From positions 27,860 to 91,859 of the forward strand of contig CAYJTB010000001.1 in assembly GCA_964372875.1 (NCBI GenBank): a stretch of DNA of 64,000 nt, in the 5' to 3' direction. The DNA is from an uncultured bacterium (GTDB lineage Bacteria > Omnitrophota > Omnitrophia > Omnitrophales > JACQLI01). A program made the translations under genes and the position numbers. Below are positions 15,316-29,391 of this stretch, piece after piece; within the stretch, counting starts at the first letter, position 1; each line of letters opens with the position of its first letter. The notes beneath the pieces were generated by a model, which searched no databases, was not told where the DNA came from, and saw only the letters and a list, made by a program, of their open reading frames with translations.

Positions 15316-18300
15316 ATGACCCTACGCGCGAAAAATTTTTATCTACGCACTGTCGCAGCTTTCACCGCAATCATTTTTTGCTGGAATAGCCTTGCTTGGC
15401 CGCTTCCCGAGGTTGCGGTTCCCCAGGCCGGCAAAACTTTCGATCTCATTCCAAAAGAACTCGGAACCGTCGATGAATACGAACTGCCGGACGCTTCACA
15501 TTCCGCACCCTTTGTCATACATATTCAAGATCTCCACGCAGCACCCGAAGCTCAAGAAAAAATCCTGGACATTCTTAAATTTTTACATTCAAAAAAGAAA
15601 CTTCTCGTAGCGGTCGAAGGAGCCGCCGGAACGCTTCATCCTGAGTATTTAGATTTCTTTCCGCAATACCCGCGTGTCACAAACGCACTCGTTCAAGATT
15701 TGGTAAGTGAGAGCATGCTTACAGGGCCGGCGTTATTCGCATGGGAGAGGTATGAGAGTAAGCCGTCATTGCACCCGTCATTGCGAGGACGTAAGTCCGA
15801 AGCAATCTCAAATCCTAGATTGCTTCGTCGGGCCTTTGGCCCTCCTCACAATGACAATAGCGTCCAATTCATAGGCGTCGAGACGCCGCGTCTTTATCGC
15901 GAAAACCTTAAAGCCTATCGCGATTTTTTCCAGGATGAAGAAAAAAATCAGCAGGATTTGAAATCTTTCCAAACCTCATTGGAATCGGCCCAAACGAAGA
16001 TTTTCAATCCTGATTTGAGGAAATTTGTCCAAGAAGTCCAGAGACGTAAAGATGGAAAGTTTCAATCGGGAAAGGCCTCGCCCGATCTTGCGGCTTACAT
16101 TCGCTTTCTCGCGGATTCAAGCCGAGATCATTTGGGAGTTGATCTAAGAGATAAATTCGAACAGATCCGTTTTCCCAATCTAACCCGCATTCTTTTCTTG
16201 ATGGAATTCGAATCAAAAATCACTGCTCACCAGCGCCGGGTTCTGCATTCTGAAATTGAATCCAAAAAACTTTTTGATGAAATCACACTTCTCGAAACAA
16301 GACTGCGGCAAATACTGGTTAAAAAGCCGGAAGAAACAAAACTTCTTGAGATCCTTGATGATTTCAAGTTGCTTGAGAAGTTATTCCATTTGGAACTGAC
16401 TCGCGAGGAATATTACCAAGTCGTCAACAGGGTTTTGGAAATCAATCCGTCGAATTTACATCAGCGTTTGGCAACCATTGCTGAGATTGCTTCGACCTCG
16501 TCTGAAATGTTGTCTCGCAATGACGCCGATTACGAAACTGCTCTGCGTTTTTACCGCTTAGCCATTCGCAGAGACAAAGCCCTTCTTGAAAATGCCTTGC
16601 GAGAGGCAGCTAAAACGGAGAACTCGTCTCAAGAAAAACCACTCATCGTTCTTGTTACCGGCGGTTTTCACACTTCAGGGGTGAGCGAGCTTCTCAAAGA
16701 AAAGAAAATTCCTTACGCCGTCGTCACGCCTGCCTTAGCAAAAACCAAAGCCAATCAAGACCAATATCACAAACTGATGTCCGGCAAAATGTTCGCCAAA
16801 GAAGCCTCAAGCGCTTCGCCCAAGAATAACAATCTGGTGTGGGCGCAGATTCTTACAGCAAGAGATCGGTACCCGAGCCTCAATTCCGACGAGGATCAGC
16901 AAAAAATATTTTCCCACGCGACTGAAAAGTCCGGCGAGTATTTTCGAAAATTCTATCCCCAAATCTCCGAACCCAAACTGCAAGAACTTTTATCTCGCCC
17001 CGCCGGATTCTTTTCGCAAATCTCCCGTTCCGAATTGCAAAGTAGGAGCCAGATTACGAATTCGGCCATCGATGGCCGAATTGGCGGGAAAAGGGTACTG
17101 CCTTCACGTTTTCCGCGCTCGGAAGTGCGGGCGGTAGAACAGCGATTAGAAGTCAGTGGTCAGAAGACAGAAGGCTGGAGTTCAAAGATAGGAAAAATTA
17201 TCAGGAATGGCAGCGATTTTGGACTATCGAGGGTTTTCCAGCGTAGTCAGGCGAAGAATTATCGAATTCCAAGCCGCTTAGAAAAATCTCGAGGTGAAAG
17301 AATAGAAATCTCTTTAAAGGTTTTCATCGATAGCAGATCGTGGTCTCCTGTGACAATGATCGTTGCTTTAGCTGAAAGAGCGCATTCCAGCACGGCATCA
17401 TCGTCCGGGTCACGGCAGGCCTTTACCTTTGTTTTAGGTTTGACTATCAAAGCTTTCATATGGATCAATGAAATCATTTCTTCAAGCATTTCAGGCGTGA
17501 TCCATTTCTTGAGTTTAGGTTTTTCCAGTGAGCGAAGAAAGTCTTCCAGTAAGGCCGGAGATAAAGCCGCAATGAACTTGTCTTCTTCCAGGGATTCCAG
17601 AATCGAACGGCAAACGCCCGGAAAGGCGAGTCCGCTCACCAGCACATTCACATCAAGAACGACCCGACGCATACCGTTCCTGCCGGGCTTGCTTGACCAG
17701 ATTCAGAAGCTCTTTTCGGCTGAGAGGGTGTTTCTTTCGGCTTTTATCAACTTTGCGGGTCAGAGAACGGAAGCGTTCTCCCCAGGTCTTATGTTCAAGA
17801 CGACGGATCAGGGTAATGCGGTCACGGGATTTCAATTGATTGATCATGCGCTCAATTTGTTGAATGTCTACTTCCACGGCAATCTTAGGCATAGGATTTT
17901 ATCCTCCTCTTCGAATCAGTATAATTTATCGGCCTTGGCGGATCAAAATCAAAACATTTCTTCCGTTAAGCCTTCTAAGCAAAGTTCGACAGAACCGAGC
18001 CGAAGGGCCGCTTCCGGCCCCGAGAGCCGTCAGTCTCCGATCCTAAGCGTCGATAGACCCGGAGGGGCCCGTGGGGAGGTGCGGGCAAAAGAACAGAGGT
18101 CAGAAGTCAGAGAGCAGAGGATAGAGGTCATAAGTCAGAGATCAGAAGGAAAAATTACTTCGAGTGGCGGCGATTTTGGTAGCGTTCGATCAGGTACATC
18201 ACGCCCCAGGCAAGAAATATCAAAACCAAAACAAGAGACACGGTTATCACGTTTTATTTACCCCTTTTCCGAATCTCTTGGGCAAGCCATCCAAGAAATA

Positions 18301-21300
18301 AGAATCATGATGGCTACAATTATAGAGAGAACAGCCTTGGCCTTCAATGAAGTTTTCCAAATGTTTTCGCTCACCACGAGGGCTGCTAATACAAGGCTCA
18401 CCGCCCTCATGATCCCATCAGCAAACAAATTCCGTCTTTTAGATGGAAAAAGGGTTTTCATCTCAATGCTTCAAGCGCCGCAACCTAACACAGGATTAAT
18501 TTTAAGTCAAATATTATTTTTAGAATATGAAATATCCCGCCGCTCGGAGGTGCGGGAATACATCTCGGATTGGACGGTCTCGACCTTGGAAACGAAACAG
18601 CCGGTTTTGGCGGCGGCATTTTCAACGGACGGGAAGATTTTGGCCGCGGGCGCAAGAAACAACGTTCATCTGACCAACGGAGACCTTCGGAAATGGTCCG
18701 TGGAATTTAGGGCCCACCGCAACGAGATTGCAAAACTTATTTCTTTTCAAAGAGGAAACAGGAATTTTTTCGCCACAGCCAGCAGAATCGGCTCGATCAG
18801 CCTATGGAATTCAAACGGCGGGCTGATCCGGCGGCTGGAGCAGCTTAATCCGGAGGATTTCCAACCTGTGTTAGGGTTATCCGTTTCTAAAAATGGAGAT
18901 TGGCTGGCAGCCACGGACATGGATGTAATGAAGATCTACGATCTTACGGGAATGAGTTCCCCTAAAACAATTCCCATCACGGATCAAAGTCGCAATCATT
19001 TCGTTCAATTTTCTCCCGATGGGACGAGCATCGCCTCCACTTATTACGGCGAAATCCGAATCGAGGATATCAAAACCGGAAAACTCCGCGCGAACCTTCA
19101 TCACGAAGCTTCTCTTAAGAAGTCCATGGATACGTCAGCCTTGGCCTTTTCCAAAGGCGATGATGTCGCCGCGGCCTCCACCGACGGAAAAATCAGGATC
19201 TGGAGATGGAAAGGGGAAAGGCAGCCTCAGGTTTTAGATTTTTTGTCACCAGCCCGCGAAGCAAGCCACCTCATCTTTTCACCTAATGGAAAACGTCTCG
19301 CCGCGTCTACGGCAGATCAGATCGAAATATGGAAACTTAATGGAAAAGTGTGGCGTCATGAAGAAACAATCTATCCGCATCTGGACGCCGTGACAGAAAT
19401 TTTATTTTCACCGGATGCAAAACGGTTTATGGCCGCAGGCATTTGGCACGGAAGCGGGAGAGTCCGAATTTGGTCGAAGGAAACGCCGGCAAGGGCCGAA
19501 GTGCGGACCGACGGCATCCCGACAACCTGGTTCCGGATTTTTAACAGGCTGGATAACCTTAACCGGGAAGTGTGGAAACAAAAAGATTTAGACATCATTG
19601 ACCTGACCAACCAATTGGAGAAAAAACTCATCAGCTTATTCGGTTCGCAGCTCCTTTATGGAATCTGGACTTGGAATACTTCAGTTCGGGAAGTACGGTT
19701 TGGCCTTAGGTCGGGGCCTTTAAGTTTTGAATTGACTGCCAACCCGCATCAGGAAATCCCGGAAAGAGAAATTAAAAGGGGATACACGGTAACAATGAAT
19801 GCGATGCTTACTTCCGCTGCGGAAAGTCAGCATGCAAAAAAATGGGGAGACAGCGAACCGGAAGAAAGGGGAGAGACTTTGCTTGAAATTCCTATTGCAG
19901 AGATCGACCGCTCCCAACCTGTTATCTATTTCGGCAGTTTCTATTTTGATACCGACAAGGAAAAGAAAGAAACGATCATCAAACAGGAAATCCTTTTCCT
20001 TCCCGGAGAGGAGAGAAATTATCAAATCTATATTTGGCATAACAACGCCCTTGAAAAAACTACCTTAGAAAAAGAAGGCGGCAGGACCTACGCGGTATGG
20101 AGAACGCCGGAAGCCGAACCTTCCCTTTCGTTTCAATATGTGGCACTGCATGATGCCCAAGGCAAAGACCTGGGCGAAATAAGCCGGCTCATTCTGAAAG
20201 CCGGAAACTCGGAAACTTACAGGAACAACCTTCAATTTCTTTACGGTCCTATTTGGAGAGACGAAACGTCGAGTTTTTCTCATGGTAGCAGAACTTCCGT
20301 AAAACCATCGGTTTTTGAAGACCTTATCTCTGCTGCGCCGGGCAAAAGGATCGCTGCGCTGCTGGGTCTAGCGATTGAATATCAATATGTCCCGGAAGGC
20401 CAAGTATTCAGCCGGATGCTGCTTACCGAATTGGAAAAATTGGAGGGCCTGCCGTACGGACGAATCGCAGCGCTTCGAGAAATTGCGGAAATGAGTCCCG
20501 AGGAAGCCCATGAAAGATTTAAAGATCCCTACGACCAGCCCAGCGCGATCCCGGCCGTCATGACCCTCGTGGCCAGCCTCGCCCCGCGTCTCCTTGAAAG
20601 AATGAAAAATTGGGATCAGGAATTTTATGAAGAGCTAAAAGGGGTCCTGCAAAAACCGGATCTCAAAACTTTATTCGAGGAAGGGGAGGTCAAATTTTAT
20701 GAGGCGGATCATCTCTGGGCCGCTTCAGATAACCGATCTTTTTTCCCTGGTGTTGTCGCCTTTTCAAGGAGTAAAGACCGGCAAATCATCGTCCCAATCT
20801 ATTTCGGCAACGAACCGAAAGATGAAGACGGCAAAGTCTGGTTTAAAATCTTGGACGCCACATCGCTTGGAATCGAGAATTCAAATGCCGCCACTTACCA
20901 AGTCTACGACCACATGCTCGGGGAATTTTATAAAACACTTCATTCAGGGGAAAAACTTTATCGAGAGGGTTGGAGCATCGGCATTCCGGTCGTCCCGGGA
21001 AAGCTGGACCGGGCCGGGTTTATCCAAAAGGGACGGCATGTTCAATTTTTGGAAATGCGAAGGACCCAATCTCTAACGACGGCGACCCGGATCGGCTTGC
21101 CGGAAAATCTTGTCAAGACACAAGGGATTCTTACGGATCTTTTGAGAGAAATGAGTAAACTCGAAATTTATTTTTTTATCAGTAAGACCGGTGCAACCGA
21201 TCGGCGCATGGTGCCTGTGGATAACGTTTATGAATTTTTTTCATCCTATGCGGGGAAAAAAGGCGAGCATTGGAATGAAATCGTAAGTGAGCCCCTTCAA

Positions 21301-24300
21301 TTGACCGTGAGCTCTCCGGGTTTTAAGCGCCAGACGCTTCGGCATGCGCTTCGGATGATGCAGGAAGCGCTTCAACTTACTTATTCTTTCCCCGGCACTT
21401 TGAAAGGAAATGACCCCCACCTTTCTTTTTATCACGATAAATTAATCGAAGAGACCCAACTTTTAAAAACATCGGATCAAACCGGAAAGTGGGCCCATGT
21501 CGAATTCGAAATCGCAAGCAGCCATTTTGAAATGCCGGATCATTGGGATCAGCCCGCCGAAAATTCGCTGCGTCAAAGAATTCAGGCGTTGCGCGAGGCA
21601 TTAGAAATTCCCTTTGTCCTTATGTTAAAAGCACCTTCCGGCGCCAAGGATCCTTATCACATCGAGCCGGTGGGAAACCTTCACCAGCGGCTTCCTTATT
21701 TTGTTCTCAAAGATGATTTCTTGAAAAATCCTCACGATCCGCGTTTTCCCTATTTTTCAAAAGGCGCTCAACTCAGTTTCGGACTTGAAGCACCCATGGA
21801 TTCGGCAAGATTGGAACAAGTTAGAAATATTCTGGTTGCAAGTCTTGAAGGCCGGATGTCGGCAGCTACCCTTAAGCGTGCCATTGAAGTGACGATGCAT
21901 CAGTGGCAAAGAGAAGACTCCTTCTTTTCCGAATCCCGCTCCGAGGCACGCCGTGTGCCTCGAACGCTTGCGGTGCACCCGGTGCGGTTGGCACCGGGTA
22001 CTCCGCTATACCCGGACCGGTCGGGTCCGGGTGTTGCGGTGCAGAGTCATTGGAACTCTGCCCGTTCAGAAGTTCGAACGGAGAAGTCAGAACGTCTAAC
22101 TCGTTCCAATGCAGGCGAATTACTCAAACCGCGCAGATACCTCAAGAATAAAATCTACGGAATTGGGCGCATTACCGCTGTGGAAGGAAAATTCGGGGGA
22201 AAAGATCCTCAAGGCTCCGTCGAGGTCGCTTTTTTAAATAAACACGGATTCGAAGAAACGAAAGAATTTTCCACCTGGTCACTTTTTCAATTGCCGGAGC
22301 AAAATCCCGAAGAAGCTTTCTTTTCCGTTACCAGGCAAGAAATCGAAGATTTCAAGAATCAAAAAAGACAAGGTCAAGCAGCTTATAAAGAAGAAATAGA
22401 TAAAAAACGCATAGCCCAACGGGAGGGCAGGCAATGGATGGAAGCACAAAGCCCCACATTTTCTCTCTACGATTCGCCTTTCAGCGCAAGAGCCGGAAGG
22501 CCCCTGGCCGCAGATTATAGAAAATTGATGCAAGGAATCCAAGACCGGGCACAGGGCGAGTATCACTTGGGCAGCGCCTCCATCGTGGAACGAAAAATTT
22601 TGTTTGAAATGCTGGGCACTCGCCTGATCCCTAAGACGAACCAATCGGAAACCACCCTTCGGATCAACTTAGGCCGGAGAAAAAAGGAATTCGCAGAGAA
22701 ATTGAAAACGATTTTAGATGAAACGGGCGGGCTAAGCGCCCGGGCCGTGAGCGAGGCGGAAGAGAAAATCATGTCTCCCAAAGATAAGTCCCGTGCGCTT
22801 TCAAGCGAATGGCTGAAATTCCGGGATCCTGTTACCGGTAAATTTGCGACCGAAAAAGATATCAAACGCTGGATCCAGAATGCCATTCCGATCGTTGAAA
22901 GAATCTTAGAATATGAAGTAAAACTTCTCAAATTAGAAAAACAAATTCAAATTCATCCGCGGCCTCTTGCGCGATCCGAAGTAAGGGCCGCTGAAAGTTC
23001 TCCCACAAAGAAGGTCGCATTTTTTAACCTCAGGACCGCGGACGATTCATCCATTGTTTTGCCGCAAAGGATGTCCTATCTTCCCGTCGAGCAGCGGTTG
23101 CCTGACTATAGCGCCTGGCGGATTCGAGTGGGAAGGGAATCGGGAAATTTGCACGCATTTTTGAGAGATGTCCTTGGCCCACGCTGGCATTGGAATGTCA
23201 AAGGAGAAACTAAGGCTTATTTTCTTTATAAAAGTCTCCCGAAGAAATTCAAACAATTTATTGGTAAACGCAAACCGCCGACAGGTTTTGATATGGAAGC
23301 GCTTGGACTTTTGGTGGTTAATCGAAGCGACATTTTTTACATTCCGATGGAAGAAACTGTGAATGAATCCGTGGTAACGGTGTTAGACAAAAATGACCGG
23401 GACGCGATCAATGAATTTATAAGCCATCATGCAATGATCCAAACGGTGCCGCAGAATATCCGGATCTTTCCTCCCGTTCGATATGAGAGCGTCAAGTTTG
23501 GATTGGGAGAGGATCCCGTGTCGAGTCCCAAGCCCGGCTCCATCGAAGTTGTTTATCACCCCAGGCTCATGGTCAATGATCTTGGCAAGGCAGATAAAGA
23601 AATTATTTTCGAAACCAGTTTCGACTTAACACAATTAAGGCCCCGGAAAAAGATTACGGCTGAACTTGAGGGAAGATTCTATCAAGAGTTAAAGTCCAGG
23701 CTGCGCAATACTTGGCAGATCCGCATAGGCAACCGGACCGTGGAAATGCCTCGGGCAAAAGATTTGCCGGCTAAAGTTCAAGACGTGGAAGAAATTTTGT
23801 TGCCGGGGAATAACCGTAAAACGGCGTCTTTACATTTCAATGATGCGGTTTCGTTCTATCTCGACGGAATTTTGATGCGCTCCAATGTGCCTGTACCCAA
23901 GGATATTCACGCCTGGATTTTTTGGAAAACACGGATTCGTTTTAACGATCAGGAAATCTCGGTTGAAACGACCGAAGGCAACAATGTATTAACTTATCGA
24001 ACAGATGAAACCGGTGAACATCTGCGGGTCAATGGCGAACCGACAGACAATAGTGTTTTGCAAAACATGATTCGTCAGATGGGCTCCGCTTTTTCAATCT
24101 TGGCCTTTCAGATGGCGCGCGATCCCGAACAAACGGATTATCTTCGCGAATCCGGCAAAGAAACGATTGATGATGAATTCGACCAATGGCTCGGCCGTTC
24201 TGAGGTGCGGGAAGAAGGACAGCCTGCACAAAATGGGAATGGCCACGCTATCCAGAAAAAGCAAAGAGGCCGCGGGTTCAGGACTAAAGAAGAAGCCTTG

Positions 24301-27300
24301 CAAGCCCTTGCCGAAAGACAGGCAAAAGGTCTTTCCAGTGATCCAAAATCCCTTCAAAGGCATTTAGCCGAAGGCGGCAACCCTACTTTGCTCACCTTCA
24401 TTTATCGATGGAATCAAAAGCACCCGGAAGAACCCATTGAAATGAAATTGTTGCCTACCCGAACCCACAAGTACGAATCCAAAGGAGAAATTATTGAAGC
24501 GCTGGAAAAAAGGCGGCTGGAAAAAGGAGAATCAGCCAATTATCGAATGCAATTACGCCTTCATATAGAAGAAGGCGGCGATCGTACATTGTATCAAGCG
24601 GTTCTGCGTTGGAATCATGATCATCCAGAGGATTTGATCAATCTTCCTTTGGATCCCCATGTGGCGCATGGTCAATTGGGAAAATACCAGACCAAACAAG
24701 ACGGCTTGAATACTTTGAGTGAAAGGAAAAAACAAGGTCTGGGAAATTCAACCAGCGATCTCAGGCAAACTAAATCGGATGGGGGGGATTGGCCTCTTCT
24801 TGTTTTTATTCGCCATTGGAATAAGAAGCATCCGAAGGATCGCATTGCGCTGGAGAATGCTGACCAAAACTTCAACCGCCTGAGTCCTGTTGCGGTCTGG
24901 CATTCCCAGACGCAGGATTTCAAGACGACCGATCAAAAAAGAACCGAATGGTGGCGGGCCTTGCAGGAAGAGGCGGATCACGAAGCTGGAAAAAGGCTGG
25001 TCGAGTCTTTTATTCCTTCAGTCAATGAGATTGCCCAAAGGTTAAGCGGGGGGAGAGATTCGCATTATGAAGCGGATTTAATCCAAAACGGAAATATGAT
25101 TGTCCTTGAGACGATCTATCCCGAGCGTAAAGAAGACCAGTGGAATCCGAGCCGCGGGGTTTCCATGACCGAATTTGTCGAGACCCGTTTAAAGAAAGAG
25201 ATGAGGCACCGGACATTGCAAGAGATACGTTCCAGCGGGAGATTTTCCATCGACGAGCCCTACCGTTTTTCCAAAGGCAGAGAAAAGGAATGGCAGGTTC
25301 CCAGTTATGACGCCCAACCGCAGGAAGTCCGAATTAACAACTTGGCTGATGAGAGGGACAAGCAATCGGGCCTTCCCGTGATTTTGTTTGAGGAAAAACA
25401 TCAAATCGCCCGCGAGATCGGAAAATGGTTAATCAAAAAAGGTTTTCTTAAACAGGTCAAGCAGGAAGGGATTCAGAACCTTGCCGTTTCAATGATCGGA
25501 AGCCTGGGAGTGCTCGGATCGGCAGTCAGAGATAAAAGCGATCTTAATTTGATGGTTGTTACCGACGCAAATGAGTCGCAGGCTGAAGCCCTCGCAGAAA
25601 AACTTGCGCAGTGGATCGGGGGCCGATATCACGAGCCGCAGGATTCGGAGCCTATCCGCATCTCCGTAGGAAAAGAAGGTGATTATGAGCAAGCCATAGC
25701 AGACGGAAACGGCTTCATTAGCTTACTTCAAAAACACAAGGTGGGCACAGACCCCATCAAAGGAATTGCAAGCGTTGAAGTGATTGGAATTCCCGACGAA
25801 GACAACTCGTTTTCCGAAGACTCTCTTACCCGGCAAAAAACGCGGGCGGCTTTTCACCTGGCCTTCCAAGATCCCCGGTTAGCCGAGCAGGCAATCAATG
25901 GGATCCTTGTCCTTGAAAATGCCAAGGGGGCCGCAGAGCGTCTTGCCCAAAAATTGCCGAGCGATCAGGAAAACCTTTTCGGTTATTATGAAAAATTTCT
26001 TGCCAAACAAGCCGCCAATCTTCGCAAGTTGCAGGAATCTTCCATTGACTCAAAAGCAAGGGCCGAGGTGCACCCGAATCCGACCGATTCGGGTACTCCT
26101 CAGTCCTCGCCCGATCAGGCGAGGGCCGAGGTGCGTTCTTCTTTGCCGGAGCAACGGGCGGAAAAGAAGTTAGAAACAAGAAAGTTGGAAATTGGAGCAG
26201 GAATCAGCGGGCTTAGCGGCCGCGTTGAAACATCTAATGGGCGTGTTTTTTCCGGAAGTGATCGATTGCCAATAAAGTCAACGAGATCGCCGCAAAAATC
26301 AGAATGGCAAGGACAGCCGTCATTTAGTCTTCCTCCTTTGAGGAGCTTGCCGCAAAAATCAAGCCCAAATAAAAGCATATCACGAGTCCTCCTAGAACGA
26401 CAAGCCGCCATTTCAGGGAGAGTTTTAGGAAAAGCTCTCCTCCCAGAACTCCTGCTAATAGGACCAAAATCACATGCTGAAACAACTTTGCCAGCCAGTC
26501 CCTCCGGGCCGTTGTCAGGAATATACTTTTCACAAAATAAAATATATAGCAATATCAATTCAGAGTTAAGCGATTTTTCCCGCTCCGATGGTTCGACAAG
26601 CTCACCATCGGTCCTGAGCAAGGCCGAAGGCCGCGTCGAACGCGCCGAGGTGCACCCGAATCCGACCGATTCGGGTACTCCTCCGCACTCACGCCCAACC
26701 GGCGTGAGTACTGAGGTGTCCCTGGCGGCGCCGCCAGGGGCTCCTCCGTCCTCGCCTGAACGGGCGAGGGCCGAGGTGCGGGCAAGCGTTGAAGAAATAA
26801 TCAGGAAGCAGATGCTTTCTGGAGATCTGAAGGCCTTTGAAAAGAATTTCGAATCTTACGACCGTGAAAAGGCCTTTGAACTTTTAAATAGCATTTCGAA
26901 AATTGCCAAGGAAATTTCAGAAAGGATCCGCAAAGGAGAAGAAGAACTGATGGTAGCTGCAAACAATGGCCAAAAAATGCAAGAAATCATTGACGCGGCT
27001 AAAATCTTGGAAAATTTCCCAAATGATAAACAAATACATGGTGTCCACCTATCAGCTATTATAAATTTACAGGAAATCTTCAATCTTACACCAAAAGCAT
27101 TGCCAAGATATCGCAATCTCTTAGAAGCTATTGTTAAACACGCGTCAAAAAAAGAACAACCTCACCAGGCAGCAGCTGAAATTATCGAGAGCTTTGAAGG
27201 AGAACAGCACGCTGATTCCCAACAAGATCAATTTCAAAGGAACGAAGCACTGGAATTTTTAACCCTAGATCTGGATGAAAAAGTTTTTAAAGAAACAGTA

Positions 27301-28719
27301 ATAAAAAATCATTTTCTGACCGCGCTTCATCATTTCATTTGGGAACACAGCGACTTTGAAGATGCGAAGAATTTAGCCAGAGAACTCGGTAACTTGAGCC
27401 TAATCAGTTCTTTGTTGGGTGAGCCCCTCAGTAAAAGACAGGCCGCTTTTTATAAGCGCGCACTTTTGAGCTCTGACCGCACGCAGCAGAAGATCGCGCT
27501 TGGCTTCTTCGAGACTTTCCCTGATCTTGAAAAAATGGACTGGAAAGAGGAAGTCGTTGGTAAACTTAAAGAAATCGTAATGGATGAATCCGAAGATTCT
27601 GAATTTAGAAAATATGCCTTTGAAGCGTTGACAAACAATATTCTTCTTATAGAGCCAGCCTTTTTGGCGCCTTATTTTAAAGAGCCGCGCAGCCAACGGT
27701 TTCGAATCATTTCTTCGGATAAAAAAGGCGCTCGGATTTTATTTTCGGTTCTTCAGAAGAAATTTGGGTCGCCTTTAAAGGACCCGCCCCTTTTTAAAAA
27801 AAGTTCCGAGTCCATCATTTTATCAGGAGAATTTACGACAGGTCTGAGAAATGCTGCCATGTTGATCCGATTTGTAAGGCAGGCCTACGGCCGGGAGATA
27901 TCCTTTGATGAGTCCCGCGGCTTGCTTAAAGAGATGAAAAAGAAACAAGACAGATCCCGGCGTTCCGAAATACGGAGTGAAAGCTTGGATTCGACGTGGG
28001 AGTTGAGGGAGGATGCGAACAAAGGAAAGCTTGCGGAACTTGGAAAACAATTTGCGCCGATGATTGAGAGTCTTTGGAAACGCTCCGAGGTCAGGCACAG
28101 GCTTGCGACGGACGGATTTTTGAATCTTTCAAAGCTGATTGAAATTCCCAAAGCCGAAGCGGCTGAACCTGCGATTGTAGCTGCGCTTTTGATCCGTGCA
28201 GAACAATCCCAAACCGGAACGCCGGCTTTGGACAAACATTTGCAAGTGTGGCAGTCGCGCATGGGAATCAGTTCGGTTGCTAAAGAAAATGAAGTCGTAA
28301 TCCTCTTAGAAGGTGCGGCGTTTAAACTCGGACTCTTGGCTGCGATCGACGGAATTAGCCCGGCAGCTCCGAAGATCGGCGTTGTGGCGCCCAAGGCTTA
28401 CCATTCTTTAGTGGAAGAAGTCAGAAGCGGTCTTAGAACCGGGCAAGAACTGATCGAAGGGGAGAAGCTTCCCGAAATTTTAAATCAAATTGCTCAGATG
28501 AAACAGAAGCCAAGCCGCTTAACGATTTGGGCTTCGAAGGAAGACTCGTTCTTAACAGCAGCGTTCATCAAACGTTTTCTTAAAGATCCAAACCTGAATG
28601 TAGAAGTAAAGACCGTGACGCAGCGCGATCTTGACCGCGCCAACGCGTCTCACCCCGGCTTTGCGGAACGTATCAAGAACTTCCTCGCCGCCGTCAAATC
28701 CCTCAGCATTTCCGCTTAA
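15316..28719 (+). CDS. giant modular ORF, 4,467 codons, function unknown
   Basis: Single uninterrupted frame; AGGAAAG RBS; N-terminal TM helix; protein-like composition in most modules; junction peptide conserved with synonymous codon variation. Caveat: three segments look non-coding on this strand. Confidence 0.7.
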   Translation: MTLRAKNFYLRTVAAFTAIIFCWNSLAWPLPEVAVPQAGKTFDLIPKELGTVDEYELPDASHSAPFVIHIQDLHAAPEAQEKILDILKFLHSKKKLLVAVEGAAGTLHPEYLDFFPQYPRVTNALVQDLVSESMLTGPALFAWERYESKPSLHPSLRGRKSEAISNPRLLRRAFGPPHNDNSVQFIGVETPRLYRENLKAYRDFFQDEEKNQQDLKSFQTSLESAQTKIFNPDLRKFVQEVQRRKDGKFQSGKASPDLAAYIRFLADSSRDHLGVDLRDKFEQIRFPNLTRILFLMEFESKITAHQRRVLHSEIESKKLFDEITLLETRLRQILVKKPEETKLLEILDDFKLLEKLFHLELTREEYYQVVNRVLEINPSNLHQRLATIAEIASTSSEMLSRNDADYETALRFYRLAIRRDKALLENALREAAKTENSSQEKPLIVLVTGGFHTSGVSELLKEKKIPYAVVTPALAKTKANQDQYHKLMSGKMFAKEASSASPKNNNLVWAQILTARDRYPSLNSDEDQQKIFSHATEKSGEYFRKFYPQISEPKLQELLSRPAGFFSQISRSELQSRSQITNSAIDGRIGGKRVLPSRFPRSEVRAVEQRLEVSGQKTEGWSSKIGKIIRNGSDFGLSRVFQRSQAKNYRIPSRLEKSRGERIEISLKVFIDSRSWSPVTMIVALAERAHSSTASSSGSRQAFTFVLGLTIKAFIWINEIISSSISGVIHFLSLGFSSERRKSSSKAGDKAAMNLSSSRDSRIERQTPGKASPLTSTFTSRTTRRIPFLPGLLDQIQKLFSAERVFLSAFINFAGQRTEAFSPGLMFKTTDQGNAVTGFQLIDHALNLLNVYFHGNLRHRILSSSSNQYNLSALADQNQNISSVKPSKQSSTEPSRRAASGPESRQSPILSVDRPGGARGEVRAKEQRSEVREQRIEVISQRSEGKITSSGGDFGSVRSGTSRPRQEISKPKQETRLSRFIYPFSESLGQAIQEIRIMMATIIERTALAFNEVFQMFSLTTRAANTRLTALMIPSANKFRLLDGKRVFISMLQAPQPNTGLILSQILFLEYEISRRSEVREYISDWTVSTLETKQPVLAAAFSTDGKILAAGARNNVHLTNGDLRKWSVEFRAHRNEIAKLISFQRGNRNFFATASRIGSISLWNSNGGLIRRLEQLNPEDFQPVLGLSVSKNGDWLAATDMDVMKIYDLTGMSSPKTIPITDQSRNHFVQFSPDGTSIASTYYGEIRIEDIKTGKLRANLHHEASLKKSMDTSALAFSKGDDVAAASTDGKIRIWRWKGERQPQVLDFLSPAREASHLIFSPNGKRLAASTADQIEIWKLNGKVWRHEETIYPHLDAVTEILFSPDAKRFMAAGIWHGSGRVRIWSKETPARAEVRTDGIPTTWFRIFNRLDNLNREVWKQKDLDIIDLTNQLEKKLISLFGSQLLYGIWTWNTSVREVRFGLRSGPLSFELTANPHQEIPEREIKRGYTVTMNAMLTSAAESQHAKKWGDSEPEERGETLLEIPIAEIDRSQPVIYFGSFYFDTDKEKKETIIKQEILFLPGEERNYQIYIWHNNALEKTTLEKEGGRTYAVWRTPEAEPSLSFQYVALHDAQGKDLGEISRLILKAGNSETYRNNLQFLYGPIWRDETSSFSHGSRTSVKPSVFEDLISAAPGKRIAALLGLAIEYQYVPEGQVFSRMLLTELEKLEGLPYGRIAALREIAEMSPEEAHERFKDPYDQPSAIPAVMTLVASLAPRLLERMKNWDQEFYEELKGVLQKPDLKTLFEEGEVKFYEADHLWAASDNRSFFPGVVAFSRSKDRQIIVPIYFGNEPKDEDGKVWFKILDATSLGIENSNAATYQVYDHMLGEFYKTLHSGEKLYREGWSIGIPVVPGKLDRAGFIQKGRHVQFLEMRRTQSLTTATRIGLPENLVKTQGILTDLLREMSKLEIYFFISKTGATDRRMVPVDNVYEFFSSYAGKKGEHWNEIVSEPLQLTVSSPGFKRQTLRHALRMMQEALQLTYSFPGTLKGNDPHLSFYHDKLIEETQLLKTSDQTGKWAHVEFEIASSHFEMPDHWDQPAENSLRQRIQALREALEIPFVLMLKAPSGAKDPYHIEPVGNLHQRLPYFVLKDDFLKNPHDPRFPYFSKGAQLSFGLEAPMDSARLEQVRNILVASLEGRMSAATLKRAIEVTMHQWQREDSFFSESRSEARRVPRTLAVHPVRLAPGTPLYPDRSGPGVAVQSHWNSARSEVRTEKSERLTRSNAGELLKPRRYLKNKIYGIGRITAVEGKFGGKDPQGSVEVAFLNKHGFEETKEFSTWSLFQLPEQNPEEAFFSVTRQEIEDFKNQKRQGQAAYKEEIDKKRIAQREGRQWMEAQSPTFSLYDSPFSARAGRPLAADYRKLMQGIQDRAQGEYHLGSASIVERKILFEMLGTRLIPKTNQSETTLRINLGRRKKEFAEKLKTILDETGGLSARAVSEAEEKIMSPKDKSRALSSEWLKFRDPVTGKFATEKDIKRWIQNAIPIVERILEYEVKLLKLEKQIQIHPRPLARSEVRAAESSPTKKVAFFNLRTADDSSIVLPQRMSYLPVEQRLPDYSAWRIRVGRESGNLHAFLRDVLGPRWHWNVKGETKAYFLYKSLPKKFKQFIGKRKPPTGFDMEALGLLVVNRSDIFYIPMEETVNESVVTVLDKNDRDAINEFISHHAMIQTVPQNIRIFPPVRYESVKFGLGEDPVSSPKPGSIEVVYHPRLMVNDLGKADKEIIFETSFDLTQLRPRKKITAELEGRFYQELKSRLRNTWQIRIGNRTVEMPRAKDLPAKVQDVEEILLPGNNRKTASLHFNDAVSFYLDGILMRSNVPVPKDIHAWIFWKTRIRFNDQEISVETTEGNNVLTYRTDETGEHLRVNGEPTDNSVLQNMIRQMGSAFSILAFQMARDPEQTDYLRESGKETIDDEFDQWLGRSEVREEGQPAQNGNGHAIQKKQRGRGFRTKEEALQALAERQAKGLSSDPKSLQRHLAEGGNPTLLTFIYRWNQKHPEEPIEMKLLPTRTHKYESKGEIIEALEKRRLEKGESANYRMQLRLHIEEGGDRTLYQAVLRWNHDHPEDLINLPLDPHVAHGQLGKYQTKQDGLNTLSERKKQGLGNSTSDLRQTKSDGGDWPLLVFIRHWNKKHPKDRIALENADQNFNRLSPVAVWHSQTQDFKTTDQKRTEWWRALQEEADHEAGKRLVESFIPSVNEIAQRLSGGRDSHYEADLIQNGNMIVLETIYPERKEDQWNPSRGVSMTEFVETRLKKEMRHRTLQEIRSSGRFSIDEPYRFSKGREKEWQVPSYDAQPQEVRINNLADERDKQSGLPVILFEEKHQIAREIGKWLIKKGFLKQVKQEGIQNLAVSMIGSLGVLGSAVRDKSDLNLMVVTDANESQAEALAEKLAQWIGGRYHEPQDSEPIRISVGKEGDYEQAIADGNGFISLLQKHKVGTDPIKGIASVEVIGIPDEDNSFSEDSLTRQKTRAAFHLAFQDPRLAEQAINGILVLENAKGAAERLAQKLPSDQENLFGYYEKFLAKQAANLRKLQESSIDSKARAEVHPNPTDSGTPQSSPDQARAEVRSSLPEQRAEKKLETRKLEIGAGISGLSGRVETSNGRVFSGSDRLPIKSTRSPQKSEWQGQPSFSLPPLRSLPQKSSPNKSISRVLLERQAAISGRVLGKALLPELLLIGPKSHAETTLPASPSGPLSGIYFSQNKIYSNINSELSDFSRSDGSTSSPSVLSKAEGRVERAEVHPNPTDSGTPPHSRPTGVSTEVSLAAPPGAPPSSPERARAEVRASVEEIIRKQMLSGDLKAFEKNFESYDREKAFELLNSISKIAKEISERIRKGEEELMVAANNGQKMQEIIDAAKILENFPNDKQIHGVHLSAIINLQEIFNLTPKALPRYRNLLEAIVKHASKKEQPHQAAAEIIESFEGEQHADSQQDQFQRNEALEFLTLDLDEKVFKETVIKNHFLTALHHFIWEHSDFEDAKNLARELGNLSLISSLLGEPLSKRQAAFYKRALLSSDRTQQKIALGFFETFPDLEKMDWKEEVVGKLKEIVMDESEDSEFRKYAFEALTNNILLIEPAFLAPYFKEPRSQRFRIISSDKKGARILFSVLQKKFGSPLKDPPLFKKSSESIILSGEFTTGLRNAAMLIRFVRQAYGREISFDESRGLLKEMKKKQDRSRRSEIRSESLDSTWELREDANKGKLAELGKQFAPMIESLWKRSEVRHRLATDGFLNLSKLIEIPKAEAAEPAIVAALLIRAEQSQTGTPALDKHLQVWQSRMGISSVAKENEVVILLEGAAFKLGLLAAIDGISPAAPKIGVVAPKAYHSLVEEVRSGLRTGQELIEGEKLPEILNQIAQMKQKPSRLTIWASKEDSFLTAAFIKRFLKDPNLNVEVKTVTQRDLDRANASHPGFAERIKNFLAAVKSLSISA
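15765..15855. mobile_element. MITE-like element inserted in-frame in the giant ORF
   Basis: GTCATTGCACCC GTCATTGCGAGG...AAGCAATC..GATTGCTTCG...CCTCACAATGAC; translated SLRGRKSEAISNPRLLRRAFGPPHND. Confidence 0.6.
16475..16524. repeat. possible degenerate/short copy of the same MITE family
   Basis: CCATTGCTGAGATTGCTTCG...TCTCGCAATGAC, translated ...MLSRND; left terminus is weak. Confidence 0.3.
17059..17082. repeat. 24-bp perfect palindrome
   Basis: AATTCGGCCATC|GATGGCCGAATT, 34 nt upstream of the first RSEVR junction. Confidence 0.9.
17259..17672 (-). CDS. PIN-domain ribonuclease toxin (PIN_3/VapC-like)
   Basis: VVLDVNVLVSGL..., CRDPDDDAVLECALSAKATIIVTGDHDLL: acidic PIN residues in the canonical order; 20-nt overlap with the upstream small gene. 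Confidence 0.9.
   Translation of the reverse strand: MRRVVLDVNVLVSGLAFPGVCRSILESLEEDKFIAALSPALLEDFLRSLEKPKLKKWITPEMLEEMISLIHMKALIVKPKTKVKACRDPDDDAVLECALSAKATIIVTGDHDLLSMKTFKEISILSPRDFSKRLGIR
17653..17892 (-). CDS. putative antitoxin of the PIN toxin
   Basis: 79-aa basic protein directly upstream of and overlapping the PIN gene; strong RBS; family not recognised. Confidence 0.6.
   Translation of the reverse strand: MPKIAVEVDIQQIERMINQLKSRDRITLIRRLEHKTWGERFRSLTRKVDKSRKKHPLSRKELLNLVKQARQERYASGRS
18070..18556 (-). mobile_element. antisense cassette 2: junction, 3'-flank repeat, small membrane protein
   Basis: Same build as cassette 1; bounded by junctions at 18070 and 18541; minus-strand TTGACT -35-like box upstream of ATG 18461. 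Confidence 0.4.
18258..18461 (-). CDS. small two-TM membrane protein (paralog of 26324..26533)
   Basis: 67 aa with two hydrophobic helices. Shares MK(T/S)(L/I)F...RR..(F/L)A...LVL.A.V...SLK pattern with the other cassette protein. Confidence 0.5.
   Translation of the reverse strand: MKTLFPSKRRNLFADGIMRAVSLVLAALVVSENIWKTSLKAKAVLSIIVAIMILISWMACPRDSEKG
18556..19491 (+). other. WD40-type beta-propeller module of the giant ORF
   Basis: Repeated units such as FSTDGKILAAG, ATASRIGSISLWN, FSPDGTSIAS, ASTDGKIRIWRW, FSPNGKRLAAS..IEIWK, FSPDAKRFMAAG..RVRIWS. Confidence 0.8.
21937..22080. repeat. in-ORF array of GC-rich hairpins at a module junction (copy a)
   Basis: CGAGGCAC/GTGCCTCG; CCCGGTGC/GCACCGGG; ACCCGGACC/GGTCCGGGT; CAGAGT/ACTCTG; CCGTTC/GAACGG; flanked by RSEAR and RSEVR codons. 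Confidence 0.65.
24274..24857 (+). repeat. three tandem ~65-aa protein repeats inside the giant ORF
   Basis: GFRTKEEALQALAERQAKGL...GGNPTLLTFIYRWNQKHPEEPI / KYESKGEIIEALEKRRLEKG...GGDRTLYQAVLRWNHDHPEDLI / KYQTKQDGLNTLSERKKQGL...GGDWPLLVFIRHWNKKHPKDRI. Confidence 0.6.
25060..25230 (+). other. sigma-70 region-2-like stretch in the giant ORF
   Basis: EADLIQNGNMIVLETIYPERKEDQWNPSRGVSMTEFVETRLKKEM resembles DLIQEGNIGLMKAV..FDP.RG..FSTYA.WWIR. Confidence 0.35.
25483..25575 (+). other. nucleotidyltransferase (Pol-beta/MNT-like) motif in the giant ORF
   Basis: SMIGSLGVLGSAVRDKSDLNLMVVTD matches the G-S-x(n)-G...D-x-D minimal NTase pattern. Confidence 0.45.
26059..26136. repeat. in-ORF hairpin element (copy b)
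   Basis: AGGGCCGAGGTGCAC CCGAATC cgacc GATTCGG GTACTCCT...CCTCGCC cgatca GGCGAGG GCCGAGGTGCGT; 39 bp (26062-26100) are repeated perfectly at 26644-26682. Confidence 0.7.
26324..26533 (-). CDS. small two-TM membrane protein (paralog of 18258..18461)
   Basis: 69 aa, GTG start, two hydrophobic helices, acidic C-terminus (SSSKEED); A/T-rich TATATT box upstream on the minus strand. Confidence 0.5.
   Translation of the reverse strand: MKSIFLTTARRDWLAKLFQHVILVLLAGVLGGELFLKLSLKWRLVVLGGLVICFYLGLIFAASSSKEED
26641..26781. repeat. in-ORF hairpin element (copy c, expanded to four hairpins)
   Basis: CCCGAATC/GATTCGGG; ACTCACGCC/GGCGTGAGT; CCCTGGCGG/CCGCCAGGG; CCTCGCC/GGCGAGG. Confidence 0.7.
26782..27960 (+). 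other. alpha-helical (HEAT/ARM-like) module of the giant ORF
   Basis: Helix-rich composition with a recurrent ~40-aa helical periodicity; judged by eye only. Confidence 0.3.
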
Positions 28720-28807: not shown

Positions 28808-29017
28808 ATGACACGAGTGACAGTTTCCCCAAAATATCAAATCGTGATCCCTAAAGAAATTAGGGAAAAGTTGGATATTCGGTGCGGACAGAAGATGGCC
28901 GTCGTAACAAGAGGGGAATGGATTATGCTGGTTCCCGATCTGCCTTTGAAACATTATCGGGGGTTTTTGAAAGGTGTGAGTTCAGAGGGGGTTCGTGACC
29001 GAAGGGACCGGTTTTGA
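28808..29017 (+). CDS. vapB: AbrB/SpoVT-type antitoxin
   Basis: MTRVTVSPKYQIVIPKEIREKLDIRCGQKMAVV: looped-hinge-helix AbrB fold motif; 4-nt overlap with the PIN gene. Confidence 0.85.
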   Translation: MTRVTVSPKYQIVIPKEIREKLDIRCGQKMAVVTRGEWIMLVPDLPLKHYRGFLKGVSSEGVRDRRDRF

Positions 29018-29391
29018 CGGTCATCGATTCAAGCGGTTGGATTGAGTTTTTTAGCGAAGGTCCACTTGCCTCCCATTATGAAAAGCATTTGGGGTCTTTG
29101 TCTGAGATTGTCGTTCCTACCATTGTGCTTTATGAAGTCTACAAGAAATATAAGAGAGAAAGCGGAGAGCAAGGCGCTTTGACCGCGGTGTTTCATATGC
29201 AAAAGTGCCGGATCGTACCTTTAACAGAAGAATTGAGTTTGGAGGCGGCGGATTTAAGCCTTCAATACGGACTTGCCATGGCCGATGCGATTGTTTATGC
29301 GTCGGCACTTCAGGAAAAAGCAAAGTTAATCACCAGCGATAAAGCCTTAAAAAATCTGCCTCAAGTGGTTTACTACAGTAAATCGTCCTAA
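29014..29391 (+). CDS. vapC: PIN-domain toxin
   Basis: MTVIDSSGWIEFF..., LSLEAADLS...MADAIVYASA...LITSD: PIN acidic residues. Confidence 0.85.
   Translation: MTVIDSSGWIEFFSEGPLASHYEKHLGSLSEIVVPTIVLYEVYKKYKRESGEQGALTAVFHMQKCRIVPLTEELSLEAADLSLQYGLAMADAIVYASALQEKAKLITSDKALKNLPQVVYYSKSS

Follow-up and report, generated by a model that had tools for sequence, protein, structure and literature searches.

Small membrane-protein modules lie antisense within a polyprotein-like giant open reading frame of an Omnitrophota bacterium

Very long proteins composed of many unrelated domains, termed 'multi-enzyme cluster' proteins, have been described in the Omnitrophota (bioRxiv 10.64898/2026.06.07.730766; 10.1101/2023.11.21.568195). 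West-Roberts et al. suspect that the long proteins of this phylum are cleaved post-translationally, and note that information on the points of cleavage is absent (2023, bioRxiv 10.1101/2023.11.21.568195). Term searches of both papers brought up neither a separator motif nor a polyprotein model, and no mention of antisense genes (bioRxiv 10.64898/2026.06.07.730766; 10.1101/2023.11.21.568195). The open reading frame (ORF) that we describe here, present in a 64-kb stretch of DNA (the window), resembles the multi-enzyme cluster proteins in that it comes from the same phylum and is long and tiled by unrelated domains, but differs from them in that it encodes 4.5 k aa rather than >30 k aa and is without the C39, dockerin and SecA domains, which were absent from the ORF in a domain scan.

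Viral polyproteins, such as those with picornavirus 3C and potyvirus NIa sites, likewise combine one ORF with many mature proteins and a recurrent site peptide. The window ORF is similar to these in that a boundary peptide recurs and a protease-like unit lies inside, but it is located on a cellular chromosome, its units are of housekeeping type and include Tat-exported ones, and its cleavage is putative; moreover, we know of no viral polyprotein that holds antisense genes in excised spacers. Chromosomal integron arrays are rich in toxin–antitoxin (TA) pairs and small unknown ORFs. Discrete cassettes in the same orientation, interspersed TA modules, recurrent hairpin junctions and content that varies among relatives are common to these arrays and the window ORF, whose cassettes nevertheless lie inside a stop-free translated frame, have a peptide-level junction and appear to have promoter-like sites of their own; attC cores were not seen at the cassette boundaries, nor IntI among the annotated neighbours. 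Rickettsia palindromic elements, which encode nothing, and inteins, which self-splice and carry any homing endonuclease in the same frame, are like the window inserts in being foreign DNA that leaves a coding frame unbroken (and inteins are removed at the protein level), whereas the window inserts carry their cargo on the opposite strand and their removal would use a host motif duplicated at both ends. As in Hok/Sok and TisB/IstR, the small membrane peptides of the window have a fully complementary transcript on the other strand, which here would be the host mRNA, and TA genes adjoin. Unlike type I toxins, they form a two-protein module (two transmembrane (TM) helices plus one) with a conserved charged, His-rich motif and no homology to known toxins. 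We found no description of such an arrangement in the literature that we searched.

The host ORF does not look like an ordinary gene but like unrelated protein units fused in the manner of a polyprotein, and its codon usage is sense-coding throughout with the exception of three cassettes, B, C and K (Table 1). Its immediate neighbours are annotated as GT2, PEGA, MazE/PIN and KsgA. Unit A may belong to the EreA/ChaN/TraB/TIKI/RRSP superfamily, whose marks are its fold together with four signature motifs (a His motif, Glu, RD..[M/L]..N and G-x-H). Only unit A and the last units (aa 4216–4467) are common to the window ORF and the syntenic giant ORFs, and unit A alone is shared with the other related, non-syntenic giant ORFs; its prominence is in part a search bias, because the related loci were found with unit A. 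With its putative TIKI/RRSP-like fold, unit A is a candidate processing protease. The topology predicted for it includes an N-in signal-anchor, which would make its catalytic domain extracytoplasmic, and for this reason unit A fits poorly as the processor of HPr, CheY and Tat-precursor units.

Table 1 Positions of the host ORF, its separator motifs and its antisense cassettes in the window
Feature	Position	Strand	Details
Stop-free host ORF, polyprotein-like	15316..28719	+	4,467 codons
Unit A	15316..17115	+	N-terminal TM helix and domain of putative erythromycin-esterase/ChaN/TraB/TIKI/RRSP fold
Motif codon starts in host ORF	17116, 18070, 18097, 18541, 19492, 22063, 22972, 24196, 26122, 26767, 27961, 28081	+	in-frame
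Motif variants in host ORF	RSEAR 21937; RAEVH 26059, 26641	+	
Cassette B, VapC-like PIN and antitoxin-sized ORF	17116..18069	-	
Tiny-peptide gene remnant, cassette B	17190-17222		last 6 codons
VapC-like PIN toxin	17259-17672	-	PIN_3 E=8.1e-18
Antitoxin-sized ORF	17653-17892	-	79 aa; upstream of PIN gene, overlap 20 nt
Promoter-like TTGATC-17-TATACT, cassette B	17946-17918	-	promoter scan
Cassette C, spacer unit with copy 1 and partner	18070..18540	-	RGEVR/RSEVR (18070, 18097), RSEVR (18541)
Tiny 1-TM partner of copy 1	18155..18250	-	(M)ITVSLVLVLIFLAWGVMYLIERYQNRRHSK; 31 aa, GTG start
Small 2-TM protein, copy 1	18258..18461	-	67 aa; two hydrophobic peaks
Promoter-like TTGACT-17-TAGGTT, copy 1	18510-18482	-	weak; read by eye
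Left linker of cassette K	26059..26121	.	peptide RAEVHPNPTDSGTPQSSPDQA; two in-frame hairpins, z=-2.9
Cassette K, spacer unit with copy 2 and partner	26122..26766	-	junctions 26122, 26767
Tiny 1-TM partner of copy 2	26234..26323	-	MTAVLAILIFAAISLTLLAIDHFRKKHAH; 29 aa
Small 2-TM protein, copy 2	26324..26533	-	69 aa, GTG start
Promoter-like TTAACT-17-TATATT, copy 2	26569-26541	-	ends 7 nt ahead of start
Right linker of cassette K	26641..26766	.	four in-frame hairpins, z=-5.9

The pentapeptide R-[S/A/G]-E-[V/I]-R occurs 12 times in the frame of the host ORF and once in the remaining six-frame translation; it stands between all of the sense-coded units and also brackets each antisense segment. As in a processed polyprotein, a boundary peptide recurs in diverse codons (45 motifs in the 15,220 aa of the giant ORFs against 0.33 expected, and none in the 18,747 aa of the other window ORFs), and the units are complete independent proteins. 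In related loci the motif lies 8–16 residues ahead of stand-alone proteins that are complete (HPr, CheY, UDP-glucose dehydrogenase), Tat signal peptides begin directly after it, and Pfam profiles begin at position 1–2, 8–16 aa past the motif; these units are whole proteins, matching positions 2–79 of the 81 in the HPr profile, the start of Response_reg, the full UDP-glucose dehydrogenase and sigma70_r2. The motif draws on all six Arg codons and on four Ser codons (TCN and AGT across lineages), position 4 varies among V, I, L and M across lineages, and a single motif peptide is spelled AGAAGTGAATTGAGA in the syntenic locus L016 and CGCTCGGAGGTGCGG in the window. The sequences therefore indicate that the motif is a signal at the level of the peptide and is conserved as such. 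The DNA of the motif varies little inside a single lineage (in the syntenic locus L017, 9 of 11 sites share GCCGAGGTGCG), so a role of the junction at the DNA or RNA level is possible.

The three antisense segments are non-coding in the host frame (about 690 codons) yet free of stops: about 22 stops would be expected across them, about 8.5 of them within the genes and about 13.5 within flanks totalling 851 nt, and none is seen. Given protein and codon usage, the probability of encountering no stop is 0.11 for VapC, 0.10 for VapB, 0.46 for the first small gene and 0.003 for the second. In the host frame the inserts would translate into antisense-derived peptides of 157–318 aa. Cassette B, the neighbouring TA cassette that the preliminary description had recognized, is indeed one (PIN_3 E=8e-18): a gene for a PIN-domain toxin lies behind a small overlapping antitoxin gene, as in type II VapBC systems, and no Pfam family was found for the antitoxin ORF. 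Its codon usage scores positive in the minus frame and negative in the giant frame, and ~105 nt of its left flank are homologous to cassette C. Scores in the giant frame are about zero or negative for cassette C and -10 to -20 for cassette K, which is bracketed by duplicated linker modules (26056–26135 and 26638–26780) containing the direct repeats D5 (47 nt, 94%) and D8 (40 nt, 90%). Cassette boundaries read CGN-[TCN/GCC/GGG]-GAR-GTG-CGN. As had been claimed, both small genes are followed by a 3′ flank and a junction of one type, the order in gene orientation being tiny gene, purine-rich (+ strand) tract and in-frame R-[S/A/G]-E-V-R. Since the promoter-like site of copy 2 ends so near the start codon, its mRNA may be leaderless.

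Both minus-strand ORFs reported in the preliminary description are present, and comparative evidence indicates that they are genuine genes belonging to a conserved uncharacterised family. Direct comparison of the two proteins gave 31% identity over 45 aa by BLASTP (E=5e-4), weak by itself, and 25% in a nearly gap-free global alignment. A profile of the two copies, searched exhaustively with HMMER against 1.84 billion representatives, found 30 matches at E<1e-3, five of them at E<1e-10 and the best at E=1.9e-19; nearly all are 50–95 aa long and align in the same register with hardly any gaps (consensus F-T-x-x-R-R-x-x-L-A-K ... S-E-x-F-x-K ... C-P-acidic tail). The family is known so far only from Omnitrophota or unassigned metagenome contigs, and when all six frames of the window were scanned with the HMM, the two copies were detected and no third. 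With a profile of copy-1-like homologues alone, copy 2 reached 17.9 bits, whereas the best of 4,000 shuffles reached 13.9; the converse comparison gave a less clear separation (12.3 bits, with 3 of 4,000 shuffles scoring higher). The proposed paralogy is thus upheld by the family matches, their shared register and a conserved partner gene, and the similarity exceeds that of random peptides. Copy 1 is 62% identical to the homologue P0001 and copy 2 54% identical to the homologue P0003, whereas the two copies share 19–25% identity with each other, a pattern that points to ancient paralogues of two subfamilies and not to a recent double insertion. The idea of a cassette family inserted at least twice in one ORF therefore stands as regards discrete antisense cassettes with like junctions, but not as a recent event; similarly, a single ORF does hold both copies, but it is no ordinary host gene, and its junction is a recurring separator peptide.

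That the small ORFs might be chance hydrophobic ORFs on the antisense strand, at a place where the giant protein is of low complexity, would be in keeping with a pair identity of only 25–31%, an empty word-indexed search and the lack of a known family. This explanation is effectively refuted by the 30 homologues (E-values down to 2e-19) that agree in length and register, by the conserved partner gene, by free-standing copies that were annotated as genes in ordinary surroundings, and by the small frame being kept better than the giant frame, whose codon score is negative. Specifically, copy 2 and its homologue in the related locus L002 are 55% identical in the small-protein frame and 32% in the giant frame, indicating that selection works on the small-protein frame.

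Because a partner gene of 29–31 aa had been overlooked, the cargo of the cassettes is a two-gene module, in which a one-TM peptide of ~30 aa comes immediately after a two-TM protein of ~67 aa. The stop of copy 2 abuts the start of its partner (TAAATG), about 90 nt of which are conserved with L002, and an abutting ~30-aa one-TM gene lies 3′ of the small gene at every locus with downstream DNA read (homologous tiny ORFs in L002, L006, L011, L017, L028, L029, L030 and L031). The tail of the partner peptide is basic and His-rich, with the C-terminal consensus 'AIDRYRxRHAH'.

Searches of Pfam, NCBIfam, PHROGs and PADLOC found no known family for the small proteins, the phage, plasmid and IMG/VR collections contained no matches, and an Rfam scan for antisense RNA returned nothing. 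The toxin, addiction or holin function raised earlier finds no support in any of these protein resources, and a toxin or addiction role is speculation. The searches likewise gave no support to a type I or other small hydrophobic toxin (no family in Pfam, NCBIfam or PADLOC with a meaningful E-value), a phage holin (no consistent PHROGs match, empty phage, plasmid and IMG/VR searches, and housekeeping genes as neighbours) and an integron gene cassette (hairpins present at the boundaries, RYYYAAC / GTTRRRY attC cores absent).

Related and syntenic Omnitrophota loci share the motif, and antisense small-TM and ParE cassettes are motif-flanked there. The small module sits between RAEVR and RSEVR in L002 and, in L017, right behind unit A between two RAEVR, with a ParE-like TA inside doubled RAEVR; the cassette is absent from L016, and the syntenic loci are conserved at their ends and variable in the middle. 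Like cassettes occur in L002, L017, L010-15, L029 and L031. Around the embedded copies of L010-15, L029 and L031 the open frame runs the length of the contig and lacks RSEVR, and in L010-15 'TQPQGLRTTVA' repeats take its place. The module is free-standing in ordinary intergenic settings in L006-9, L030 and probably L028. Neither a recombinase nor a strict empty site was found, so the evidence for mobility is indirect.

On balance, and by a narrow preference, we think that the host ORF is an operon-like polyprotein whose linkers act as intergenic DNA that gathered cassettes. The operon would be translated as one polyprotein and its units parted at the motif, either by a protease, unit A being one candidate, or co-translationally. 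The linkers, as the functional counterpart of intergenic DNA, would gather the usual intergenic arrivals (TA pairs, modules of small genes, palindromic repeats), with insertions persisting only when in frame and without stops. Because separator motifs flank each insert, its antisense-derived peptide would be set free as a separate fragment and then discarded, and the cassette genes would be transcribed against the host transcript from promoters of their own. The two-TM and one-TM pair may, very tentatively, be a membrane accessory or a selfish module that shares the landing sites of TA pairs.

The small modules could instead be functional partners of the giant gene, as cofactors in the membrane or as regulators of how the polyprotein is expressed or processed, their antisense placement coupling them inversely to the host transcript through transcriptional interference or duplex RNA. 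Where DNA could be read, the module is antisense in giant frames at six independent loci against three free-standing ones, gene callers under-report embedded copies, the window and L017 have the module directly or one cassette behind unit A, and the tiny peptide is strongly conserved. We nonetheless consider a partnership unlikely, given that the module is missing from syntenic L016 and from the giant ORFs of L003-5, L018 and L020, that free-standing copies lie among housekeeping genes, that TA pairs, a typical kind of selfish cargo, fill the same slots, and that the window and L017 copies are not orthologous.

It is improbable, in our estimation, that translation does not run through the whole giant frame, that the units are instead made separately by internal initiation or from a processed mRNA, that the frame stays open for another reason and that the cassettes are ordinary intergenic insertions. 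Such separate translation would suit the frequent SD-like GGAGGTG in the motif DNA, a position 4 that is often GTG, ATG, CTG or TTG, and the free N-termini that Tat-signal and cytoplasmic units require. However, a consistent start codon at SD spacing past the motif is not seen, 17 of the 45 position-4 codons are not start-like, an SD does not explain the conservation of both arginines, and without read-through there is no cause to purge about 22 expected stops. About as improbable is integron-like DNA shuffling at a GARGTGCGG core with RSEVR as a by-product and the units expressed otherwise, since across lineages it is the peptide rather than the DNA that is kept (all six Arg codons; V/I/L/M), the frame is open through about 690 non-coding codons, and there are no attC-type R''/R' cores at the boundaries and no integrase among the annotated neighbours. 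In its favour are 13 occurrences of GARGTGCG against 3.0 expected (7 of the 13 fall within the ORF, chiefly at the junctions of cassettes), the nearly uniform motif DNA of L017, syntenic loci with highly variable interiors and conserved ends, and the direct repeats around cassette K with hairpin arrays at junctions. A role of the core in recombination is compatible with a role of the peptide.

Two minus-strand ORFs of 67 aa (copy 1) and 69 aa (copy 2), which the preliminary description took to encode paralogous two-transmembrane (2-TM) proteins, are present in the window and are homologous. The two proteins share 31% identity over 45 aa by BLASTP (E=5e-4) and 25% identity, almost without gaps, in a global alignment, and they retrieve a shared set of homologues in HMMER searches. 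Leave-out profile tests were mixed but supportive: a profile of the copy-1 subfamily scored copy 2 at 17.9 bits, above 4,000 of 4,000 shuffled controls (best 13.9), and the reverse test, with the copy-2 subfamily profile on copy 1, gave 12.3 bits, with 3 of 4,000 shuffles scoring higher. An exhaustive HMMER search of 1.84 billion representatives with the two-sequence profile returned 30 proteins at E<1e-3 (five at E<1e-10), almost all of them 50-95 aa long; a search of a word-indexed protein database with the pair profile gave no match. The near gap-free alignment of the homologues has the N-terminal consensus F-T-x-x-R-R-x-x-L-A-K, then a hydrophobic helix with S-E/D at its end, F-x-K and another helix; in many members C-P and an acidic tail follow. 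The family comprises two subfamilies, copy 1 being 62% identical to the homologue P0001 and copy 2 being 54% and 52% identical to P0003 and P0006, respectively. Because the copies, the only two in the 64-kb window, belong to different subfamilies, recent duplication of one cassette is ruled out. A weak match in a sense-coded unit of L003, a related locus, was treated as chance.

Directly 3′ of each small gene lies a tiny ORF encoding a 1-TM peptide of ~30 aa, the start of which abuts or nearly abuts the stop of the small gene (TAAATG, TAGATG, TGAAATG). The same tiny gene, with the C-terminal consensus AIDRYRxRHAH(R), is found 3′ of the homologue in L002, L006, L011, L017, L028, L029, L030 and L031, that is, at all of the related Omnitrophota and metagenome loci for which downstream DNA was read; the unit is thus a module of two genes, encoding a new and conserved pair of small membrane proteins. 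When copy 2 is compared with the L002 homologue, the small-protein frame retains 55% identity (score 181) versus 32% (score 55) for the giant-ORF frame of the same DNA, which argues that the small protein is under selection. Neither the 2-TM proteins nor the tiny peptides match a family in Pfam, NCBIfam, PHROGs or PADLOC, and neither tblastn searches of phage and plasmid collections nor scans of IMG/VR identified relatives, so that the earlier suggestion of a toxin or addiction function finds no positive support. An Rfam scan returned nothing relevant. No record of the small ORFs, VapC or the giant ORF turned up in exact-sequence look-ups, the window being matched solely at its ksgA end, by a 3.6-kb Logan contig. 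Nearly all homologues recorded in the protein collection are on contigs of less than 3.5 kb, as expected if gene callers on longer contigs keep the giant ORF and lose the nested antisense genes, a systematic annotation blind spot.

Both modules lie antisense within a single ORF of exceptional length; the other genes of the window are of ordinary size. Codon-usage scoring indicates that the plus frame of this giant ORF is coding along almost its whole length, with three exceptions, which coincide with cassettes B, C and K. The plus frame of these three segments contains zero stops. Resampling of synonymous codons in the four antisense proteins gave probabilities of zero stops of 0.11 for VapC, 0.10 for VapB, 0.46 for copy 1 and 0.003 for copy 2. 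In all, ~22 stops would be expected, ~8.5 in the genes and, taking the expectation from the other two frames, ~13.5 in the 851 nt of non-coding flanks; none is observed, and the giant frame is therefore kept open by selection, the antisense genes being embedded under a stop-free constraint. The embedded VapC has not a single tyrosine residue; since Tyr codons are one of two sources of host-frame stops in its register, its protein sequence may have adapted to the nested position.

Coordinates of features in the window and, where a locus is named, in related loci
Feature	Position	Strand	Remark
Giant ORF	15316-28719	+	4,467 codons
Unit A	15316-17115	+	first unit of giant ORF
Cassette B	17116-18069		+ frame non-coding; antisense PIN_3 toxin (E=8e-18) and overlapping antitoxin-sized ORF (VapBC-like pair)
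Tiny-gene remnant	17190-17222		3′ of VapC
VapC	17259-17672	-
Cassette C	18070-18540		+ frame non-coding; antisense copy 1
Tiny peptide of copy 1	18155-18250	-	(M)ITVSLVLVLIFLAWGVMYLIERYQNRRHSK
Copy 1	18258-18461	-	2-TM protein
Hairpin array	21937-22062		DNA-fold z=-6.1
Unit I	24196-26058
Hairpin array	26059-26121		DNA-fold z=-2.9
Cassette K	26122-26766		+ frame non-coding; antisense copy 2
Tiny peptide of copy 2	26234-26323	-	MTAVLAILIFAAISLTLLAIDHFRKKHAH
Copy 2	26324-26533	-	2-TM protein
Hairpin array	26641-26766		DNA-fold z=-5.9
MazE-antitoxin/PIN toxin pair	28808-29391	+	between giant-ORF stop and ksgA
Weak match, L003	17855-18061		E=4e-4
Tandem modules, L010	9373-11097
Tandem modules, L011	2-1558	minus frame
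Repeat like that of unit I, L031	1-900	minus frame
Stand-alone units after RSE[V/I/L]R (Tat signals, HPr, CheY, UDP-glucose dehydrogenase)	L018 1007, 13493; L004 534; L005 18893; L020 12040, 12331

Direct repeats of the entire linker module (47 nt, 94%; 40 nt, 90%) flank cassette K, with spacings of 582 and 645 nt that are both in frame. Cassettes B and C have ~105 nt in common at their left ends, a stretch that includes the last six codons of a tiny gene 3′ of VapC (QNRCHS and stop, against QNRRHSK and stop in cassette C) with ~70 nt of shared flank beside this remnant; VapBC thus seems to have taken the place of the cargo in a small-TM cassette. Perfect hairpins (8-10 bp, loops of 4-5 nt) are arrayed in tandem in the linkers, in frame and free of stops, and encode peptide repeats such as VHPxxxxxGTP; these arrays resemble REP elements or Rickettsia palindromic elements that are obliged to remain in frame. 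A promoter-like site lies in front of VapB (TTGATC-17-TATACT) and another in front of copy 2 (TTAACT-17-TATATT, its end 7 nt from the GTG start); copy 1 has only a weak one. The cassette genes are presumably transcribed, and the cassettes are presumably mobile.

Cassettes of this kind recur in other genomes. In L002 a module lies antisense in a contig-long open frame, bounded by RAEVR and RSEVR, and in L017, a locus syntenic with the window, a module with its tiny gene (HMM E=1e-10) lies antisense right after unit A between two RAEVR motifs, together with an antisense ParE-like TA pair between doubled RAEVR motifs and possibly a diverged third copy. The L017 and window small genes gave pairwise scores near background and were rejected as orthologues. 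No antisense cassette is present in L016, which is also syntenic. L010-15 carry two tandem modules in open antisense frames with TQPQGLRTTVA repeats instead of RSEVR, the modules of L029 and L031 are likewise embedded in open antisense frames that lack RSEVR, and free-standing modules occur in L006-9 (between mscL and dnaE), in L030 and probably in L028. In L010 and L011, from a separate Omnitrophota lineage, the two tandem 2-TM/1-TM modules are accompanied by a 91-aa coiled-coil ORF, all antisense to the open frame, with junction repeats reading TQP[Q/R]GLRT[T/A]V rather than RSEVR.

The giant frame contains 12 copies of the peptide R-[S/A/G]-E-[V/I]-R; translation of the window in all six frames yields only one more. 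Pooling the window with five related giant ORFs gave 45 motifs in 15,220 aa (0.33 expected), with six of six Arg codons used; there was none in 18,747 aa of other window ORFs. Within the window the motif is written with CGC, CGT, CGA and AGG for Arg, with TCG, TCA, TCC, TCT and GCC at position 2, and with GTG, GTT, GTA, GTC and ATA at position 4; in L016 the same peptide is spelled AGAAGTGAATTGAGA. This usage points to a motif that acts at the peptide level. An alternative is that the SD-like GGAGGTG serves internal initiation; we reject it because a start codon is not consistently present and conservation of the arginines is seen in the peptide. The idea that the cassette boundaries are classical integron attC sites was also rejected. 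The motif DNA is much more uniform within a lineage (9 of the 11 motifs of L017 are GCCGAGGTGCG, and the window cassette junctions read GARGTGCGG), and the junctions have probably also been spread by duplication or recombination.

L016 and L017, two of the metagenome loci matched by unit A (see below), share with the window the GT2 and PEGA genes upstream and ksgA downstream (45-75% identity); within the giant ORF, conservation is confined to the first and last units, the interior being completely different. In both loci ksgA follows the giant ORF within ~20 nt, and the MazE/PIN pair of the window is therefore a lineage-specific insertion. A search with aa 450-1400 of the giant ORF, dominated by generic WD40 hits, yielded no empty-site relatives. 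Between motifs, the units of the relatives are complete stand-alone proteins that start 8-16 residues after the motif: HPr twice (one of them covering positions 2-79 of the 81 in the profile), the receiver domain of CheY, matched from profile position 1, UDP-glucose dehydrogenase with all three domains, and a sigma-70 region 2 unit. Two units begin, immediately after the motif, with canonical twin-arginine signals ('RSEVRSPISRRRFFKTAAAG', 'RAELRTDEGRREFLKSALAG'). Giant ORFs thus contain whole proteins as units, and Tat-type and stand-alone units need free N-termini. The simplest reading is that the giant ORF is an operon expressed as a polyprotein, and we infer that its products are separated at the motif and that the antisense-derived spacer peptide, being flanked by motifs, is released as a separate fragment.

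Unit A (aa 9-300, up to ~520) matches giant-ORF starts in three Candidatus Omnitrophota MAGs and 12 metagenome loci. A domain of this type heads the giant ORFs of L003, L004, L005 and L016-L027, with unrelated content downstream. It is predicted to be a conserved, TM-anchored domain with an erythromycin-esterase/ChaN/TraB/TIKI/RRSP-like fold, and it keeps four conserved motifs, which we take to resemble the signatures of the TIKI/EreA superfamily; its profile matched no PDB sequence. Unit A is a candidate processing enzyme, on which we do not rely because its N-in signal-anchor predicts an extracytoplasmic domain and because its prominence partly reflects its own use as a search query.

These observations can be accommodated by a tentative model that we regard as possible rather than probable. 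Some Omnitrophota operons would be expressed as polyproteins cut at R-S/A-E-[V/I/L/M]-R, and a class of gene cassettes (small membrane-peptide modules and TA pairs) would be specialised for antisense residence within the linkers. Such cassettes would contain no stop in the host frame and have the host separator motif at both ends, so that the translated 'shadow' would be excised after translation. Any imprecise deletion would disrupt the host ORF, which would guard the cassettes against loss, and they would constitute a protein-level analogue of introns and inteins. If correct, the model would provide a first concrete candidate for the signal at which giant proteins of Omnitrophota are cleaved or separated, make bacterial 'operon-as-polyprotein' expression testable at one defined pentapeptide, and give selfish or accessory genes a new niche on the antisense strand of linkers that are translated and then discarded.

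Going by term searches, both reports on Omnitrophota giant genes (West-Roberts et al. 2023, bioRxiv 10.1101/2023.11.21.568195; bioRxiv 10.64898/2026.06.07.730766) describe multi-enzyme giant polypeptides with suspected cleavage, the former explicitly giving the cleavage points as missing; the same searches turned up neither a polyprotein model nor a separator motif nor any antisense genes. RSEVR as a separator was not found in the limited literature searched, within which the arrangement appears undescribed. Finally, unit I of the giant ORF contains three ~60-aa repeats (...AEGG[N/D]xxL...RWNxxHP...) followed by sigma-70-like and nucleotidyltransferase-like stretches, and a repeat of similar type ('AEGGDRALYLAARAFGVELP') occupies the whole giant frame in L031.
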